NCBI GenBank assembly: GCA_038227875.1 | Contig: JBBRPR010000009.1 | Coordinates: forward strand, 64,001-128,000 | Reading direction: 5' to 3' | DNA: 64,000 nt | Source of the DNA: Planctomycetota bacterium | GTDB lineage: Bacteria > Planctomycetota > SZUA-567 > H5-PLA8 | Shown: positions 39,832 through 47,757 of the stretch, in pieces | Layout of the letters: each line of letters starts with the position of its first letter | Position numbering within the stretch: the stretch's first letter is position 1 | Translations under genes and position numbers: made by a program | The notes under the pieces: generated by a model | Seen by the model: the letters and a program-made list of their open reading frames with translations, nothing else | Database searches by the model: none | What the model was told of the DNA's origin: nothing

Positions 39832-41073
39832 ATGGATGGTGCACGCCGCACGCTACTCATCGTCACCGGAACGCTTCTGTCGCTGGGCGTGGTGATGGTC
39901 TACAGCGCCAGTTTTGTCTTCGCCGAGAAGAAATTCGGCTCGCCGACGTACTTCCTGCAGCGGCACGCCGTCTACCTGCTCACCGGCTGCATCGCGCTGG
40001 GGGTGACGAGCCTCTGGGACTACCACAAATTGGCGCGGCACTGGAAGTGGCTGATCTGCGCCGCGGCCATAATGCTGATCGCGGTGATGATTCCCGGCAT
40101 CGGCGTGCGCATCAACGGGGCGCGGCGCTGGTTTTCGCTCGCAGGCATCACGTTTCAGCCCTCGGAAGCCGTCAAGCCGCTGGTGATTATGGGCATGGCC
40201 GGCTTTGTTGTTTACGCGCGGGACAAGATCACCACCTTCTATGGCGGATTCCTCCCCGGCGCGCTGATCGCCACGACCATCGTCGTTCTAACCGCCTGCG
40301 AACCGGACTTGGGCTCGGCCGGTCTGCTGACCTGTGTGCTCGGTGCGATGCTCTTCGTCGGTGGCGTGCGGCTGAAATTCGTCGTTCCATCCCTCCTGGT
40401 GGCGCTTCCCGTTGCCGCCGTTATTGCGTACAAGAAACTCGGCTACATCCAAAACCGCCTGCACGATTTCATGGCCCCCGGCGGCAGCGATCCGCTCGGA
40501 CATGGTTACCAGATTACCCAGGCGATGATGGCTCAAGGTTCCGGCGGCGTTTTCGGAGCCGGGTTGGGGCAGGGGCATTCGAAGCTCCTTTTCCTGCCAG
40601 AAGCGCACAACGACTTCATTTTCGCGCTGATCGGTGAGGAACTTGGCCTGATCGGTACGCTTTCGCTGGTGGCGCTCTTTGCGCTGCTCGTGATCCAAGG
40701 CTGGCGCGTCGCGCGACGAGCGCCAGACATGCTCGGCACCCTGATCGCGCTCGGCGTAACGCTCTGCATCGGACTCCAGGCCGCGATCAACATCGCCGTC
40801 GTCACGCACTCGATGCCCACCAAGGGCATCGCCCTCCCGCTGGTCAGCTACGGCGGCTCGTCGTTGATCTTCACCCTTGCCGCCGTCGGCATGCTCCTGA
40901 ACGTCGCCGCGCACCCCGCTTGCGACGCGGTTCCAAAATCTGTCGGCGCCGTGCCACGAAACCGTTCATCTATCTTCAGAAGGCTTGTTGCGCAGCCGAT
41001 ACCTAAACAACAGGGGCCAGTGGTTAGGGGTCAGGGGCCAGAACAGCAAGAAGTCGCTGCGCGACCAGTTTAA
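39832..41073 (+). CDS. ftsW: SEDS family peptidoglycan polymerase FtsW
   Basis: GVVMVYSAS, NGARRW, FQPSE, EPDLG, LPEAHNDFIF.LIGEELG, LPLVSYGGSS. Confidence 0.96.
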   Translation: MDGARRTLLIVTGTLLSLGVVMVYSASFVFAEKKFGSPTYFLQRHAVYLLTGCIALGVTSLWDYHKLARHWKWLICAAAIMLIAVMIPGIGVRINGARRWFSLAGITFQPSEAVKPLVIMGMAGFVVYARDKITTFYGGFLPGALIATTIVVLTACEPDLGSAGLLTCVLGAMLFVGGVRLKFVVPSLLVALPVAAVIAYKKLGYIQNRLHDFMAPGGSDPLGHGYQITQAMMAQGSGGVFGAGLGQGHSKLLFLPEAHNDFIFALIGEELGLIGTLSLVALFALLVIQGWRVARRAPDMLGTLIALGVTLCIGLQAAINIAVVTHSMPTKGIALPLVSYGGSSLIFTLAAVGMLLNVAAHPACDAVPKSVGAVPRNRSSIFRRLVAQPIPKQQGPVVRGQGPEQQEVAARPV

Positions 41074-41201
41074 GCAAATGATATTCACGGGATTCGGGGC
41101 GAGGTGGCGGTGGGTAGGGCGAACAACGGTTTCGCCACAGTGGAGATTCCTCCGCTCTGACCCCTGGCCCCTGACCTCTGACCCCTTTCCGCTACGCGGA
41201 A
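41012..41201. repeat. Empty AGGGGTC heptamer inverted-repeat element
   Basis: Left arm 41012-41042, right arm 41156-41186, then triloop hairpin ttccgc-tac-gcggaa (41187-41201). Confidence 0.85.
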
Positions 41202-41214
41202 CCGGGAGAAATCA

Positions 41215-42369
41215 ATGCGGCTAGTGATTGCGGGCGGTGGAACGGGCGGGCACCTCTTTCCGGGACTCGCGCTGGCGGAAGAGTTGCTTTCGCGCGGCGG
41301 CGATCACCAAGTCCTGTTCATGGGCGCGCGCGGAGGACTGGAAGAGCGCATCGTTCCGCTGCACGGCTACAAGCTGGAACTGCTGCCGTCCACCAAGGGC
41401 GGCTTTTTCAATTTCGGTGGACCGAGAAAGGCCTGGCAGAGCTGCAAGGGTTACTTCCAGGCGCGCCGCGCGATTCTCGCGTTTCAGGCCGACGCGGTGG
41501 TGGGGCTCGGCGGCTACGCGTCGGCTTTGCCGGCCGTCGCGGCGTGGGGCGTCGAAGTGCCGAGCATGATCATGGAACAGAACGTGATCCCCGGCCGCAC
41601 CAACCGCCATGTCGCGCGCTTCGTCAGTGAGATTGGCGTTCAGTTTTCGGAAGCGGCGAAGTACTTCGCCAATTCGCGTCTGGTCAAGCAACTCGGCAAC
41701 CCGCTGCGGAAGAAAGTCGTCCTCGCCGGCAAGGCCGCCACCGAACGGAACACGATGGCCAACGCCACGCTCCGCAACGAACCGACCGTGCTGGTCGTCG
41801 GCGGCTCGCAGGGCGCGCGCGCGTTGAACGAACTGGCTGTGAAGTGCTGGCCGAAACTCAAGCAGACGATTCCGGGCGTGAAGATGCTCCTGCTCTCCGG
41901 TCGCGCCGATGAACAGCGCACGGTCGAAGCCTTCGCCGCCGCTGGCGTGCGCGGACAGGTGATCGGCTTTACCGAATCGATGGAAGATTTGTACGCGCAG
42001 GCCGACGTGGTCCTGGCGCGCGCTGGAGCCACGACGCTGGCGGAGATCGCGGCGTTCGCTCTGCCTTCGGTGCTGGTGCCGTACCCGTTCGCGGCCGACG
42101 ACCATCAGACCGAGAATGCCAAGGCGTTCAGTTCGCGGGGCGCGGGCTGGATGATGATGCAGAAAAACATCGAGGCCGACCGCGTTGCTCAGCGTTTGGC
42201 CGATGCGGTGCTGCAGCCGGAACGCCGCCGCAAGATGGCGATGGCTGCCTCGGCGCTCGCCGCGCCCAACGCCGCGGCGACGGTGATTGACCGGCTGATG
42301 GATCTTTCCCGGCAGAATTCCGCTGCGCCGAGCGCGCAGCCGCAGAACGCGGGCATGGCCGTTGCCTAG
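41215..42369 (+). CDS. murG: Undecaprenyldiphospho-muramoylpentapeptide GlcNAc transferase
   Basis: AGGGTGGHLFP, GLGGYAS, EQNVIPG, GGSQGA, RAGATTLAE, DDHQTENA. Confidence 0.98.
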   Translation: MRLVIAGGGTGGHLFPGLALAEELLSRGGDHQVLFMGARGGLEERIVPLHGYKLELLPSTKGGFFNFGGPRKAWQSCKGYFQARRAILAFQADAVVGLGGYASALPAVAAWGVEVPSMIMEQNVIPGRTNRHVARFVSEIGVQFSEAAKYFANSRLVKQLGNPLRKKVVLAGKAATERNTMANATLRNEPTVLVVGGSQGARALNELAVKCWPKLKQTIPGVKMLLLSGRADEQRTVEAFAAAGVRGQVIGFTESMEDLYAQADVVLARAGATTLAEIAAFALPSVLVPYPFAADDHQTENAKAFSSRGAGWMMMQKNIEADRVAQRLADAVLQPERRRKMAMAASALAAPNAAATVIDRLMDLSRQNSAAPSAQPQNAGMAVA

Positions 42370-42402
42370 TTTTTCCCTCATCGAATCGCGGATTGAAATC
42401 CT

Positions 42403-43896
42403 ATGAGCATACTTGCGGTAAAAACTCCTCCTTCTCTCAAAGCCGTGACCGGTCCGGTGCTCGCGCGCTCGCTGATGGCGTCCGTGCCCGAATACCAGCC
42501 GCGCATGGATGCGGGATTGAACGGGCGACGCATTCACTTCATGGGCGCCGGCGGCATCGGCGTCAGCGCCTTGATGGAACTCTGCGCGGCGCGCGGCGCG
42601 ATCGTGAGCGGCTGCGATTGCTCGAGCGGCGGGCAAGTCGCTACGCTGCGCGCGAAAGGAATCAAAATTGAAACCGGCCACTGCGCCAGCCACATCGCCA
42701 ACTGCGATGAACTGGTCTACACAGCCGCGGTGAACCAGACGCATCCGGAAGTCGCCGAAGCGCTCCGCGCCGGCAAAACGGTGAGCCCTCGCATGCATAT
42801 GCTCGGCCGCATCGCCCGCGGCACGCGCGGCGTCTGCGTCACCGGCGCTCACGGAAAAACCACGACGACGTGGCTGATCGCCAACATGCTGATTACCGCG
42901 CAGCGCGACCCATCGGTGCTCGTCGGCGGCGTCGTTCAGAAACTCGGCGGAAACGTCCGCGTCGGCAAAGGCCGCGAATTCGTCGCGGAAGTCGACGAAT
43001 CCGACAACCGTCTCCACGAAGTCGTGCCGACGATTCCCGTCCTGACTAACATCGACAACGACCATCTCGACAACTACGGCACGGTCGACGCGATCGAAGT
43101 GGCCACCGAACGCTTCGTCGGTTCGCTCGACGCACGCGACCCGCTCTCCGTCCTGATCGGCTGCGGCGACGACGTGCGCGTGCGCCGCGTGCTGAGCAAT
43201 GCCAGCCGCGCCTCGCGCCGGCCGGTGCTCGCCTACGGTTTTGCCACCAGCAACGACGTCTGTGCGATCCACCTGCGCAGCGAAGGTCTCGGCTGGCGCT
43301 TCGATGTGCTCGGACCATTCGGTTACTGGAAGGACGTCGAGCTGCCGATGCCCGGCCAGCACAACGTCCTGAACGCGCTGGCGGCGATCTGCGTGGGCTG
43401 GCACCTGGGCCTGGAGCAGGATGTCATCCGCAAGAGCTTCTCTGAAATCGAACGCGTGGCGCGGCGCTTTGAAATCAAGGGCACCGTCCGCGGCATCCGC
43501 GTGATTGACGACTACGGCCACCATCCGACCGAGATCGCCGCGACGCTCGACGCCGCGCGCGCGTCGACGACGGGACGTTTGGCCGTGATCTTCCAGCCGC
43601 ACCGCTTCTCGCGGACGTCGCAGTTGATGGATCAGTTCGCGGATTGTTTTCATGCAGCTCAAAAAGTGATCCTGATGCCGATCTACGCGGCCAGCGAGAA
43701 ACCGATTCCGGGAGTCGACCACTACGCGCTGGCACGCGCCGTGTTGTCGCACGGACAGATTGACGTGGAAGTCGTAGGCAGCCGCGCGGACGCGATCACC
43801 GCCGCGGTGGCGTGGGCGAAATCCGGCGACACGATCATGACGCAGGGCGCGGGCGATATTACGAGGGCGGGCGATGAACTGGTATCACGGCTTTGA
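42403..43896 (+). CDS. murC: UDP-N-acetylmuramate--L-alanine ligase
   Basis: IHFMGAGGIGVSAL, GAHGKTTTT, EVDESD, NIDNDHLD, DDYGHHPTE, FQPHRFSRT; true start may be a later Met. Confidence 0.97.
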   Translation: MSILAVKTPPSLKAVTGPVLARSLMASVPEYQPRMDAGLNGRRIHFMGAGGIGVSALMELCAARGAIVSGCDCSSGGQVATLRAKGIKIETGHCASHIANCDELVYTAAVNQTHPEVAEALRAGKTVSPRMHMLGRIARGTRGVCVTGAHGKTTTTWLIANMLITAQRDPSVLVGGVVQKLGGNVRVGKGREFVAEVDESDNRLHEVVPTIPVLTNIDNDHLDNYGTVDAIEVATERFVGSLDARDPLSVLIGCGDDVRVRRVLSNASRASRRPVLAYGFATSNDVCAIHLRSEGLGWRFDVLGPFGYWKDVELPMPGQHNVLNALAAICVGWHLGLEQDVIRKSFSEIERVARRFEIKGTVRGIRVIDDYGHHPTEIAATLDAARASTTGRLAVIFQPHRFSRTSQLMDQFADCFHAAQKVILMPIYAASEKPIPGVDHYALARAVLSHGQIDVEVVGSRADAITAAVAWAKSGDTIMTQGAGDITRAGDELVSRL

Positions 43897-44809
43897 GCGC
43901 GTCGTCAGGGAGAACGTCTCCCTGGCGAACTTGACGACCTATCGTGTCGGCGGTCCGGCGGAGTTCTTCGCCGAACCTTCGGATGCGCTGGTGCTCGGCC
44001 AGTTGCTCACCCGCACAGCAACCGACGGCATCAAGACGCGCTTCATGGGCGGCGGCACCAATCTGCTCGTCGCCGATGCCGGCGTCCGCGGCCTGACGGT
44101 GAAGCTGCCGAAGTACGCATTTGGTTATCTCTACCGCAAGAACACGCGCGTCCGCGTTGGCGCGGGACACAGCCTGCCGGCGCTGGTGAAGTGGAGCATC
44201 GCCAATGGACTCAGCGGACTGGAATGTTTGCAGGGCGTGCCTGGCACCGTGGGCGCCGCACTGCGCATGAACGCGGGCGGAAAATACGGCGAGATCTGCA
44301 GCCGCGTGCGCCGTGTCATGGGCTTCGAACGCACCGGAACGGCGTTTGACCTGAGCGCAGATGACTGCGGCTTTACGTACCGCAATTCCAACCTGCACGG
44401 CCGCATCGTGACCGGCTGTGAACTGGACTTGATGGAAGGCGATCCCGTACAGAGTCAGGCACTGGCCGACAAGATCATTCGCGAAAAATGCGCGAGCCAG
44501 CCCTTGAACGCGCGCTCCGCTGGTTGCGTCTTCAAAAACCCGAAGCTTCCCGGCGTCGCCCCGGCCGGAAAGCTGATCGACGACATGGGCCTGAAAGGCA
44601 CACGCGTCGGCGGCGCGCTGGTTTCCGATCTTCACGCCAATTTTCTCCTGTGCGACGGCCGCGCATCGGCCGATGACGTAGTGAAGTTGATTCGTTTAAT
44701 CCGCGAAATGGTCTACCGCGAACGCGGCGTGTACCTCGAGACCGAGATTGAGACGTGGGGCTTTGACGCGCAGGAGCTTGTTCCGTCTGTGTGCGTACGT
44801 GCTGCTTAG
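43874..44809 (+). CDS. murB: UDP-N-acetylenolpyruvoylglucosamine reductase
   Basis: TTYRVGGPA, GGGTNLL, GVPGTVGAALRMNAG, SAGCVFKNP, HANF. Confidence 0.97.
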   Translation: MNWYHGFERVVRENVSLANLTTYRVGGPAEFFAEPSDALVLGQLLTRTATDGIKTRFMGGGTNLLVADAGVRGLTVKLPKYAFGYLYRKNTRVRVGAGHSLPALVKWSIANGLSGLECLQGVPGTVGAALRMNAGGKYGEICSRVRRVMGFERTGTAFDLSADDCGFTYRNSNLHGRIVTGCELDLMEGDPVQSQALADKIIREKCASQPLNARSAGCVFKNPKLPGVAPAGKLIDDMGLKGTRVGGALVSDLHANFLLCDGRASADDVVKLIRLIREMVYRERGVYLETEIETWGFDAQELVPSVCVRAA

Positions 44810-44916
44810 CGCGGCGAGCGCGGCCAAGCCGCGAGGGGTCAGGGGTCAGGGGCCAGGGGTCAGAGTAGACGAGCGTTGCGCGAGAATGCGACAGGCACGG
44901 AGATTGATGGACGGTT

Positions 44917-44957
44917 GAACAGCAGAACAGCAGAACAGCAGAACAGCAGGAACGGCA
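44917..44957 (+). repeat. GAACAGCA octamer tandem repeat
   Basis: (gaacagca)x4 followed by ggaacggca. Confidence 0.85.
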
Positions 44958-44975
44958 GGTTTTGAGGAACGCGGT

Positions 44976-45365
44976 GTGAGTGTGGAGCGGATTCGCGATT
45001 TTCGAGATTTGATCATTTGGAAGAAGGCCATTGAGTTTGCTAAAGAGGTCTACGTGCTGACCGCGACGTTTCCGAAAGACGAACGGTTTGGATTGGTCGC
45101 GCAGTTGAGAAGATCATCAGTCTCTGTTTCATCGAATGTTGCCGAAGGACACGCCCGACAGGGAAAGGAATTCGCGTACTTTCTGTCGATTGCTCGCGGA
45201 TCATTAGCGGAAGCGGAAAGTCAGCTCTTCCTCGCAGTTGAACTCGGATTCTTAAGACCGCAAGACCTGAAAAGTGTTACGGGCCTTTCTGAAGAGATCC
45301 GCCGAATCGCAGCAAAGCTAGCGCGCACTCTAAGCGCTCGCCCAATTCTGACCCCTGGCCCCTGA
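44976..45365 (+). CDS. Four-helix-bundle protein (23S rRNA IVP / TIGR02436-like)
   Basis: FRDLIIWKKA, FPKDERFGLVAQLRRSSVSVSSNVAEG, FLSIARGSLAEAESQL; GAGGA RBS before GTG. Confidence 0.93.
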   Translation: MSVERIRDFRDLIIWKKAIEFAKEVYVLTATFPKDERFGLVAQLRRSSVSVSSNVAEGHARQGKEFAYFLSIARGSLAEAESQLFLAVELGFLRPQDLKSVTGLSEEIRRIAAKLARTLSARPILTPGP

Positions 45366-45411
45366 CCCCTGACCCCTCGCGGCTCTGCCGCGGTGAACGG
45401 AGACGAAACAA

Positions 45412-46359
45412 ATGAGCGATCTACTCAAAGGCCTGGCGATTGGCGTGCTGTATGGCGGTCCTTCTTCCGAGCGCGAAGTTTCGATTGAGTCTGGGGAGAA
45501 TGTTGCGTCGGCTTTGGAGAAGGCGGGGCATGATGTTCATCGCGTGCTCCTCGATGGATCGTTTACGGCGAAGGATGCGCAGTCTCTTGGAATTGATGTC
45601 GCGTTTCTGGCTCTGCATGGTGAATTCGGTGAAGACGGCGTGATCCAGGGGATTCTGGAAGCGGCGGACCTTCCGTACACGGGCAGCGGAGTGGATGCGT
45701 CGTCGACAGCCTTCGACAAGGTGTTGGCCAAGCGCGCGTTTGAGAACCACAACCTCCGCACGCCGGCCTGGATGTCGCTGGACGTTTCCGAATTGGAAAA
45801 GGCCGGTGGCTTCAACGGGCTGTGCCTGATTCCGCCGATGGTCGTGAAACCGGCGACGGGCGGGTCGAGTCTGGGCGTCACCATCGTTCGCGACGAGTCG
45901 CAGGTGACTCCGGCGGTCAACAAGGCTTTCGAATACGCCGACACGATCATCGTGGAACGCTACATCAAGGGCCGCGAAGTAACGGTCGGGGTGCTGGGTG
46001 ATTCGGCACTGCCGGTCGCGGAACTGAAGATTGCTGGCGAGTTTTTCGATTACCAATCGAAGTACACCGACAACGGTACGACGGTGGTCTGCCCCGCGGA
46101 CCTCAACGAGATTCTCGCCGCGTGCGTGCAGTCGCTGGGCCTCGCCGCGCACCGCGCACTGGGTTGCCGCGATTACTCGCGCACCGACATCATCATCGGC
46201 GAAGACGGCCTGCCGTGGGTATTGGAAGTCAACACGCTGCCCGGCATGACATCACATAGTCTCCTTCCGCGCGCCGCGGGTGCGATGGGCAAGAGCTACG
46301 CAGAACTGTGCGAAGAGATGCTGCGCATGGCCGTCACCCGTTCGCTGGCGCGAAAGTAG
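45412..46359 (+). CDS. ddl: D-alanine--D-alanine ligase
   Basis: GGPSSEREVS, LHGEFGEDG, PYTGSG, VKP..GGSS, FFDYQSKY, LEVNTLPGMT. Confidence 0.98.
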   Translation: MSDLLKGLAIGVLYGGPSSEREVSIESGENVASALEKAGHDVHRVLLDGSFTAKDAQSLGIDVAFLALHGEFGEDGVIQGILEAADLPYTGSGVDASSTAFDKVLAKRAFENHNLRTPAWMSLDVSELEKAGGFNGLCLIPPMVVKPATGGSSLGVTIVRDESQVTPAVNKAFEYADTIIVERYIKGREVTVGVLGDSALPVAELKIAGEFFDYQSKYTDNGTTVVCPADLNEILAACVQSLGLAAHRALGCRDYSRTDIIIGEDGLPWVLEVNTLPGMTSHSLLPRAAGAMGKSYAELCEEMLRMAVTRSLARK

Positions 46360-46570
46360 GCAGAAGGCAGCGGCAGTCAGCAGTCCGTGATTGGAATGCG
46401 TTCAGCAAAGAAATTATTCCGCTCGAAGAAATTGAGTTTAACGGGGAGAAGGTCGGACGGCCCTGACTGCAAGCGAGTCAGGGCCGTTTCGTTTCTGCTG
46501 TTTTCTGTTCTGCCGTTTCTGTCCATTCCACCGACGCGCTGAGCGCGCAAACCTTCCGTGCTCACGCCAA

Positions 46571-46611
46571 ACTCTGGCCCCTGACCCCTGACCCCTCGCG
46601 GCTAAGCCGCG
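46571..46611. repeat. Solo arm of the AGGGGTC/triloop element
   Basis: actct ggcccct gacccct gacccct cgcggc-taa-gccgcg. Confidence 0.88.
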
Positions 46612-46617
46612 CTGCGA

Positions 46618-47757
46618 CTACTTCAACACGGGTTTCCCGTCGAACTTGACGCTCTTCAGCTTCGCTTCGACTTTTGTCTGCAGTTCCGGGGAGAGCGGGG
46701 CGTAGGCGGGTTTGGCCATGGCCTGACCTTCGTGCACGCCCCAGTTGATGAACGTCACGATCTGCGTGGCCTGGTCGATGTTCTTCAGGTACGAGAGGTC
46801 TTCGTAGACCAGCAAGTAAGTGTAGCCGCTGATCGGATATGAGCCGTCGCCCGGCGCGTCGGTGATGCTCAGGCGCAGATCGTCGGGGAAGTCGGACGAG
46901 TTCTTCGCGGCTTCGATCACGCTCTCGACGGTGGGGCGCACGGGTTTGCCGGCTTTGTTGATCATCGTGGCGTAGGGGAGCTTGGCGTTTTCGGCATAGG
47001 CTAGTTCGGCGTAGCCGATCGAGCCGGCGGCGTTCTGGACGTTCTGGGCGACGCCGTCGCTGCCTTTTCCGCCGAGTCCCGTGGGCCATTTCAGCGAGGT
47101 GGCGAAACCAGCGGCGGCTTTCCAATCGGCGCTGACCTTGCTCAGGTAGTTGGTGAAAATCCACGTCGTGCCGGAGCCGTCAGAGCGGTGGACGACGGTG
47201 ATGTCCGTCGCGGGAAGTTGCACGCCGGCGTTGAGCGCCGCGATTTTCGGGTCGCTCCACTTGGTGATCTTGCCGAGGAAGATTTCGGCCAGCACGTCGC
47301 CGTTAAGCGTCAGATTTTTCGCTTCAGGCAGATTGTAGACCACGACCACTGGACCGGCGACGGTCGGTAGATGTAGCACGCCGGGCGCCGCTTTCAGCTG
47401 TTCGTCGGTGAGCGGCGCGTCGGAGCCGGCGAACTGGACGGTCTTGTCGGTGATGCCCTTGATCCCGCCGCCGGAACCGATCGCCTGGTAGTCGGCCTTC
47501 ACCGAGGAACTGAGCGTGTTGTACTGCGCGATCCATTTGGCGTAGAGCGGAGCGGGGAACGTCGCGCCAGCGCCGTGAAGTTCGACCGAAGCGCCGGACG
47601 TGGGCGTGGCGGGTGTTCCGGATGGCTTGGCAGTGTCAGGGCTGCCACAGCCGCTGAGCAGAAACGCGAAGCCCAGCGTGGCCGCCACGAAACGATGGTT
47701 GATGATTGAGAATTGATGAATGGGACGGCTTGCGTTTTGGCGCATGTTATTCTCCAA
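46618..47757 (-). CDS. pstS: Phosphate ABC transporter binding protein (lipoprotein copy)
   Basis: Lipobox LLSGC; GAGATFPAPLY, YQAIGSGGG, HRSDGSGTT; start could be 47745. Confidence 0.95.
   Translation of the reverse strand: MENNMRQNASRPIHQFSIINHRFVAATLGFAFLLSGCGSPDTAKPSGTPATPTSGASVELHGAGATFPAPLYAKWIAQYNTLSSSVKADYQAIGSGGGIKGITDKTVQFAGSDAPLTDEQLKAAPGVLHLPTVAGPVVVVYNLPEAKNLTLNGDVLAEIFLGKITKWSDPKIAALNAGVQLPATDITVVHRSDGSGTTWIFTNYLSKVSADWKAAAGFATSLKWPTGLGGKGSDGVAQNVQNAAGSIGYAELAYAENAKLPYATMINKAGKPVRPTVESVIEAAKNSSDFPDDLRLSITDAPGDGSYPISGYTYLLVYEDLSYLKNIDQATQIVTFINWGVHEGQAMAKPAYAPLSPELQTKVEAKLKSVKFDGKPVLK

Follow-up and report, generated by a model that had tools for sequence, protein, structure and literature searches.

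The 64,000-nucleotide stretch of Planctomycetota DNA analysed here (the window) carries, between the murB and ddl genes of the dcw operon, a lone gene for a four-helix-bundle protein enclosed by inverted repeats that combine a short hairpin with tandem heptamers. This locus raises the question of what kind of insert it is. A sequence-only reading, made from the letters without database searches, had proposed either an intervening element acting at the mRNA level or a transposase-free mobile module whose protein binds the heptamer stems.

The insert between murB and ddl

The identities of murB (43874-44809) and ddl (45412-46359) were both confirmed by Pfam, and the 602-bp spacer between them contains a single open reading frame (44976-45365, + strand). 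The inverted arms occupy 44819-44864 and 45347-45392; each measures 46 nt, the two match at 96% complementarity across the 482 nt between them, and a gapped alignment lengthens them to approximately 57 nt. From the outside to the inside each arm is built of a 15-nt GC hairpin, four heptamers and a AGAGTAGACGAGCG extension, the heptamers running AGGGGTC AGGGGTC AGGGGCC AGGGGTC in the left arm and in mirror order in the right arm. The features of the insert are as follows:

44819..44833, + strand: left outer GC hairpin, CGCGGC-CAA-GCCGCG (inverted-repeat search)
44834..44861, + strand: left array of four units, (AGGGGYC)4, identical to the commonest 28-mer of the repeat family (22 exact genome copies)
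44862..44875, + strand: inner extension of the left arm (AGAGTAGACGAGCG), with the AGARTWGRG consensus common to the repeat family
44909..44948, + strand: four tandem octamers, (GAACAGCA)x4, within the gene's 5' leader (tandem-repeat family D1)
44976..45365, + strand: PF05635 / TIGR02436 four-helix-bundle gene, 129 aa, GTG start (profile matches)
45333..45349, + strand: inner extension of the right arm, overlapping the 3' end of the open reading frame (gapped arm alignment)
45350..45377, + strand: right array, reverse complement of the left array (inverted-repeat search)
45378..45392, + strand: right outer GC hairpin, CGCGGC-TCT-GCCGCG (inverted-repeat search)

The open reading frame matches PF05635 '23S_rRNA_IVP' over positions 1-103 of the 106 of the profile (E 8.6e-34, 116.4 bits for a cut-off of 33.8) and TIGR02436 'four helix bundle protein' (109.9 bits for a cut-off of 24). 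The solved structure closest to its 129-aa product is that of XCC0516 from Xanthomonas campestris (2GSC, E 5.8e-23, five chains). A GAGGA motif lies 8 nt upstream of the GTG start, and the TGA stop codon (45363-45365) falls within the right array. The GC content of the gene is 0.52 and its GC3 0.51, to be compared with a GC3 of 0.73-0.81 for murB, ddl, murC and murG, and the nearest relatives of the protein are at most 55% identical and scattered over many phyla. The gene is a putatively foreign, horizontally acquired PF05635 gene, because its GC3 differs from that of its neighbours and its best relatives are distant and found in many phyla. PF05635 proteins are very widespread and, to our knowledge, no function has been assigned to them since their discovery in rRNA intervening sequences.

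No transposase was found between the arms, and inspection by eye of the surroundings of the insert revealed no target duplication. Neither a sigma-70-like promoter nor an intrinsic terminator was found on the + strand between 44500 and 45700, and a search of Rfam with positions 40500-47000 returned no match at E up to 0.1. Most of the initial description of the locus, namely a lone gene of lower GC in inverted hairpin-and-heptamer arms, with its stop codon in the right arm and with neither transposase nor target duplication, is confirmed by these data. The variant heptamer AGGGGCC, to which that description had drawn attention, is indeed mirrored in both arms, but the mirroring is not compensatory here: it is the family consensus, as found in the 22 exact copies of the 28-mer.

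The repeat family in the host genome and its relatives

A 19-mer of the array, with two mismatches permitted, has eight matches in the window, with none expected from 100 shuffles. The whole genome (9.34 Mb, 59.6% GC, 176 contigs, 88% complete) holds 124 arrays of at least two units, the commonest length being four units (51 arrays), and 112 arrays of at least three units when one substitution per unit is permitted. Fifty-three of these 112 have an inward-facing partner at a distance of 88-485 nt (median 154; approximately 27 pairs), the widest such pair being the gene-bearing one at murB-ddl; the remaining 59 are solo, and none of the 112 has a tail-to-tail partner. PF05635 is the only gene found between arms of the AGGGGYC type in this genome, and the 28-nt array of its own arms is also the commonest. 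The repeat family that houses the gene here outnumbers it about 100-fold, and the arms are not private to it, as they had been treated in the sequence-only reading. The arrays are intergenic, often located right after stop codons, and they are depleted within long open frames (51 of 112, as compared with 543 of 600 random sites). A perfect hairpin of at least 4 bp abuts 87 of the 112 arrays; its sequence varies while the stem is kept, a co-variation that shows some structural constraint, at the DNA or the RNA level.

The possibility that the outer hairpin is a pre-existing, free-standing REP-like target was rejected, perfect 6-bp all-GC hairpins being rarer in this genome (968, of which 22 abut arrays under this strict definition) than mirror-repeat controls (1620). 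There is no free-standing hairpin family and therefore the hairpin belongs to the element. We also rejected the idea that the gene-less copies are recent deletion derivatives of the gene-bearing copy. Past the arm and about 10 nt of AGARTWGRG their interiors cannot be aligned with it, and when the two interiors of the gene copy were compared with the 112 others by blastn-short the only match was to C38, over 16 nt; they may nevertheless stem from older decay. Thirteen candidate PF05635 remnants were scored in the genome and two matched. Paired and solo arms contain 0.137 and 0.208 mismatches per unit, respectively (p 0.32), and the hairpin is present in 42 of 53 paired and 38 of 59 solo arms (p 0.10).

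The genome contains only two PF05635 genes. The second, which is divergent (contig C10:24118-24432, - strand, 53.5 bits), has no period-7 arms and an inverted-repeat score of 22, which indicates that not every member of the family is packaged. Purine-rich 'RGCAG' tracts similar to the leader octamers were seen by eye in many gene-less copies, while a strict motif count of the leader-type purine tract retrieved it at only 10 of the 112 arrays; the GAACAGCA octamer run of the leader (44909-44948) itself matches many places in the related genome G002. A cluster of three arrays, one of them with eight units, is found on contig C2 (236425-237695) and includes a 386-nt interior with a short open frame. 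Four tracts of four G separated by 3-nt loops make up a textbook G-quadruplex motif, and both the left array (44834-44861) and all the four-unit arrays fit a four-G-tract motif, the partner arm being C-rich. A G-quadruplex was nevertheless rejected as a general principle, the units of other lineages not being G-rich.

Two additional members of the repeat family are located in the window:

41012..41186, no strand assigned: second element, gene-less, between ftsW and murG (arrays 41012-41039 and 41159-41186; array search)
46576..46611, - strand: solo arm between ddl and a convergent PstS-like gene (array 46576-46596, hairpin 46597-46611; array search)

The FtsW-family open reading frame (39832-41073) runs through the left array of the gene-less element to a stop at 41071-41073, and its last 20 or so residues are encoded by the repeat; its Pfam match stops at residue 361 of 413. 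The interval from ddl to the solo arm contains, at positions 46451-46520, a perfect hairpin (gccctgact...agtcagggc) as well as a tract rich in pyrimidines and complementary to the leader-type purine tract. Because of this complementarity the solo arm may be what is left of an element on the minus strand.

The distribution of the family was determined in 17 genomes of the host's family with a 21-mer of three units, allowing at most one mismatch. The window's genome (G000) has 183 hits, G015 has 94, G002 has 43 and G008 has 16; five genomes have 1-3 hits each and eight have none, including congeners of G002 and of G015. A reversed control pattern gave no hits in any genome except G014 (two hits). 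On these counts the repeat family has apparently multiplied in some lineages of the host's family without doing so in others. No conclusion drawn here depends on the unpublished genome G017. Genome G014 also contains about ten near-identical, full-length copies of a Y1 transposase (121.8 bits each); these indicate a recent burst of the IS200/IS605 type, unrelated to the AGGGGYC arrays, of which G014 has none.

The murB-ddl junction was resolved in 12 of the 13 loci, the value for G011 being unreliable. In this comparison of relatives, which the sequence-only reading had proposed, it was found empty, scarred or differently filled:

G002: spacer of 29 bp, empty
G009: spacer of 39 bp, empty
G005: spacer of 83 bp, palindrome (hairpin scar)
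G007: spacer of 95 bp
G006 and G012: spacer of 121 bp each
G014: spacer of 186 bp, three AGTTCCG units, the first 5 nt past the murB stop (heptamer scar)
G001: spacer of 190 bp, hairpin or heptamer scar
G008: spacer of 574 bp, PF13366 cassette
G004: spacer of 611 bp, PF13366 cassette

The junction is thus used by a second, unrelated cassette family. In G008 and G004 the gene between murB and ddl is a PF13366 (PDDEXK_3) gene, on the operon strand and within inverted arms of CACAGAG-type units. The two PF13366 proteins are 57.8% identical, as compared with 62.7% for Ddl and 58.8% for MurB, and because the cassette is as diverged as the genes that flank it, it may have settled there long ago and been inherited vertically since, instead of having inserted recently. 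The window's genome has a single PF13366 gene (contig C2:183843-184193), in an inverted repeat of about 45 nt with CGCAAAG-type units of about 8 nt, which are of a third kind, unlike the AGGGGYC and CACAGAG types; the translations of its neighbours look like putative cysD and cysN.

The whole murB-ddl locus was recovered from one of 17 sequencing runs, probably the source sample. Contigs of four other runs (X2, X3, X4 and X6) contain arrays in other contexts, or pieces of murB or ddl that end at the arms. Neither a polymorphic site nor a transposition intermediate nor an empty allele was seen in the other samples, where contigs of close strains end at the arms. The only RNA run with any part of the element covers, in its contigs, arrays in other contexts only. 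One contig from X6, an RNA library, matches at 44863/45355 and consists of a left-type and a right-type array with only 26 other letters between them. This contig represents the element reduced to a minimal hairpin in another sample, though it may derive from DNA carried over into the library.

Arms, protein and transcript

The packaging of PF05635 genes was analysed at 37 remote loci that contain the nearest relatives of the protein (33-55% identity, one genome per species) in Planctomycetota, Acidobacteriota, Gemmatimonadota, Bacteroidota, Gammaproteobacteria, Cyanobacteria, Omnitrophota, Patescibacteria and others. The score of the inverted repeat bracketing the gene is at least 38 in 23 and at least 30 in 27 of the 37 loci, for shuffle means of 14-20, and at least 36 in 21 of 30 loci of the host's own family. 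The arms around the remote genes are tandem arrays whose unit varies by lineage, and a period of 7 fits best in 27 of 37 flanks upstream of the gene and in 29 of 37 downstream of it. When only arrays with at least 18 of 21 matches are considered, the period is 7 in 13 of 16 upstream and 15 of 17 downstream cases, and any array at all was detected in only 2 of 67 distal control segments. In all, after removal of six partial matches (L051, L054, L056, L068, L071 and L084), a period-7 array is found at 55 of 67 PF05635 loci. Judged from these flanks, a gene placed between inverted period-7 arrays is the packaging that appears typical of the PF05635 family. The proposal that family members elsewhere would have such flanks was therefore borne out, and the view of the insert as a discrete, acquired, IVS-like cassette is sustained by this packaging together with the junction states and the long stem predicted for the transcript. 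No publication describing periodic inverted arms around PF05635 or PF13366 genes outside rRNA was found in a search that covered few subscription journals; as far as our searches reach, the cassette type is widespread and apparently unpublished outside rRNA.

We consider it somewhat probable that the murB-ddl insert is an IVS-type, REPIN-like insertional element with arms that act at the DNA level, the stem and any cutting by RNase III being a consequence. The insert is the sole gene-bearing copy of a genome-wide family of hairpin-ended inverted repeats, in which each arm consists of a GC hairpin, then (AGGGGYC)3-5, then AGARTWGRG, and always faces inward. The family would be insertional DNA of the REPIN/MITE kind with the arm as its conserved unit, and the arms would be spread by a trans-acting factor. 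The four-helix-bundle protein could bind nucleic acid as a non-catalytic partner of the arms or hairpins, without strict specificity for the unit. Lacking both a promoter and a terminator of its own, the cassette is probably co-transcribed with the dcw operon. In the transcript the arms would form a duplex of about 46-57 bp, and by analogy with IVS stems RNase III would be expected to cut this duplex and to separate the murB and ddl halves. Such cutting would be an incidental effect, tolerated because the site is intergenic, and would not be what the element was selected for.

Three other explanations have to be weighed against the insertional element. All four array-rich genomes (G000, G015, G002 and G008) hold a PF05635 gene with arms in the dialect of that genome, and the arm of the window's gene is the modal array, as would be the case if the PF05635 protein itself recognised and spread its arm and the 100 or so gene-less arms were its non-autonomous offspring. 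We regard this partnership, similar to that of REP and RAYT, as unlikely. Pairwise identity among the PF05635 genes in AGGGG-type arms of the four genomes is only 33-47%, and because of this the arm type does not follow the protein; moreover the protein of locus L072, 53% identical to that of the window, is nevertheless in unrelated TGCTGGT arms, and the G008 copy (L060) has an in-frame TAG. We also know of no catalytic motif in the four-helix-bundle fold of PF05635. Across the 67 loci the mean distance between units falls from 3.65 below 30% protein identity to 2.24 at 60% identity or more, and the unit is shared in each of the six cross-genome pairs with at least 77% identity, while the units of PF05635 genes within one genome differ (mean distance 3.34). 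None of 2000 permutations reached the observed association of unit and protein, a result inflated by relatedness. This correlation agrees with a partnership but it is also what plain co-inheritance of gene and arms gives. The crystals of relatives, with five chains per entry (2GSC and 2RLD), and the homopentameric toroid formed by the Xanthomonas protein of the family (PMC4990558) are in favour of the partnership as well. We read the whole as the apparent co-inheritance of gene and arms over the short term with exchange or overwriting of the arms over the long term, and not as base-specific recognition. The earlier suggestion that the protein specifically binds its own heptamers is weakened by the same identities.

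An mRNA-level intervening element, with a stem selected to loop out or excise the gene from the polycistronic transcript, is in our view distinctly improbable. A stem selected in sense RNA is expected to retain G.U pairs and to purge A.C mismatches. In the 50 of the 67 loci with alignable arms we counted 1650 Watson-Crick pairs, 63 G.U pairs, 74 A.C mismatches and 107 other mismatches, with more G.U in 16 loci, more A.C in 20 and a tie in 14. Because G.U is not in excess over A.C, the arms behave as DNA-level repeats, with no signature of selection as sense RNA in these alignments. Most arm copies, in addition, enclose no gene. The long stem that the sequence-only reading had foreseen is itself well predicted, since the arms pair end to end in the fold of the cassette transcript (MFE -262.7 versus -214.9 ± 6.8 kcal/mol for shuffles, z -7.06), and with the co-orientation of the cassette with the operon, its want of promoter and terminator, and the precedent of IVSs excised by RNase III (PMC4990558) it speaks for a device of this kind. 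Across the 37 remote loci a crude longest-frame rule gave 22 neighbours in the same orientation, 10 in the opposite one and 42 undecided, and co-orientation was set aside as too weak to serve as evidence. Still less probable, we think, is that the arrays are regulator sites of the host, or REP-like stabilisers of mRNA 3' ends, in one of which the gene landed by chance. Paired arrays in Geobacter metallireducens have been interpreted in the first of these ways (PMC2700814), and the intergenic position of the arrays, often right past stop codons, would suit it. The presence or absence of the arrays differs between congeners, unlike a conserved regulon, and the same packaging with unrelated units surrounds PF05635 genes in many phyla.

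The reading of the insert as an insertional element has points against it too: neither a target duplication nor an intermediate of transposition nor an empty allele came to light, the PF13366 cassette may be old, paired arms are not significantly better kept than solo ones, the interiors are heterogeneous, the co-varying hairpin stems show some structural constraint and no candidate mobilising enzyme was found. A bolder version, which we put forward tentatively and consider unlikely, is that the heptamer-array arm and not the gene cassette is the replicating unit, with PF05635 rings and PF13366 nucleases as interchangeable partners or passengers. If this were true, it would be a counterpart of the REP/RAYT symbiosis that works without a transposase: small genes unrelated to each other would alternate at shared operon junctions, and the rRNA IVS of the classical kind would be only its most visible landing site. 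What this locus newly contributes is the patchiness among congeners, the mismatch between arm and protein, the lack of a G.U excess, the presence of PF13366 at the same junction and the contrast in GC3. The mechanisms are thereby narrowed to DNA-level arms mobilised or maintained in trans, and we propose that the protein acts as an adaptor and does not read the sequence. For annotation, the locus is a warning that a stem within an essential operon, dcw for instance, can be a parasitic insert.

Comparison with known systems

Like MITEs, the members of the family are short, gene-less, intergenic and multicopy and have terminal inverted repeats. They differ from MITEs in that no transposase-bearing parent was found in the genome, no target duplication was seen by eye and the interiors are not conserved, heterogeneous interiors being unusual among MITE copies. 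The four-helix-bundle fold of Avd, the accessory protein of DGRs, is related to PF05635 (PMC10053308). The Avd profile NF033474 matches the 129-aa protein with E 4.8e-5 and 23.6 bits, far under the cut-off of 80, and unlike a DGR the cassette has a single open reading frame, with no reverse transcriptase and no template or variable repeat.

Geobacter metallireducens contains gene-less arrays of hepta- or octanucleotides, with four or five units and tens of copies, many of them paired on opposite strands at variable distance and interpreted as regulator sites (PMC2700814). They resemble the arrays described here in unit number, copy number and opposite-strand pairing, and they differ in this interpretation, apparently with no link drawn to a PF05635 or PF13366 gene.

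REPs are dispersed extragenic palindromes that occur as singlets or, in REPINs, as inverted doublets able to form hairpins, and each REP family has one RAYT gene flanked by repeats specific to that family (PMC3116915). The 112 arrays of the window's genome, 53 of them in inward-facing pairs, are similar to REPINs in abutting hairpins and in being depleted in open frames. The gene that they flank is a four-helix bundle and not a Y1 transposase, the conservation of their paired arms does not significantly exceed that of the solo ones, and their spacers (88-485 nt) are heterogeneous. PF01797 (Y1/RAYT) has eight matches in this genome, none of which lies beside an array when coordinates are compared, and the family is present in 16 of the 17 genomes whatever their array content. 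A RAYT as the mobiliser has no support, PF01797 neither tracking the arrays nor adjoining one.

The PF13366 (PDDEXK_3, 'GxxExxY') cassettes are built like the murB-ddl PF05635 insert and occupy the murB-ddl junction in G008 and G004 and a cysD-cysN-like junction in the window's genome. Their proteins have a nuclease-like fold and their arms have other units, with a period of about 8-9.

The remaining parallel is the ORF-bearing IVS of 23S rRNA. The IVS of Coxiella burnetii has a 28-bp stem with three tandem heptamers, variable in number, in its 5' arm, RNase III cuts have been mapped inside this heptamer-containing stem, and the element is described as selfish, with the PF05635/S23p gene in the loop of the long terminal stem (PMC4990558). 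It is the sole printed case of heptamers around a PF05635 gene that we found. The window's insert differs from a 23S IVS in lying between the MurB and Ddl genes of the dcw operon and not in an rRNA helix, in the additional outer hairpin of its arms and in the recurrence of these arms about 100 times in the genome without the gene. It shares with the 23S IVS a PF05635 gene enclosed by terminal inverted repeats with a long predicted stem, and with that of Coxiella the tandem heptamers of the arm, which are present here as (AGGGGYC)4 in both arms.
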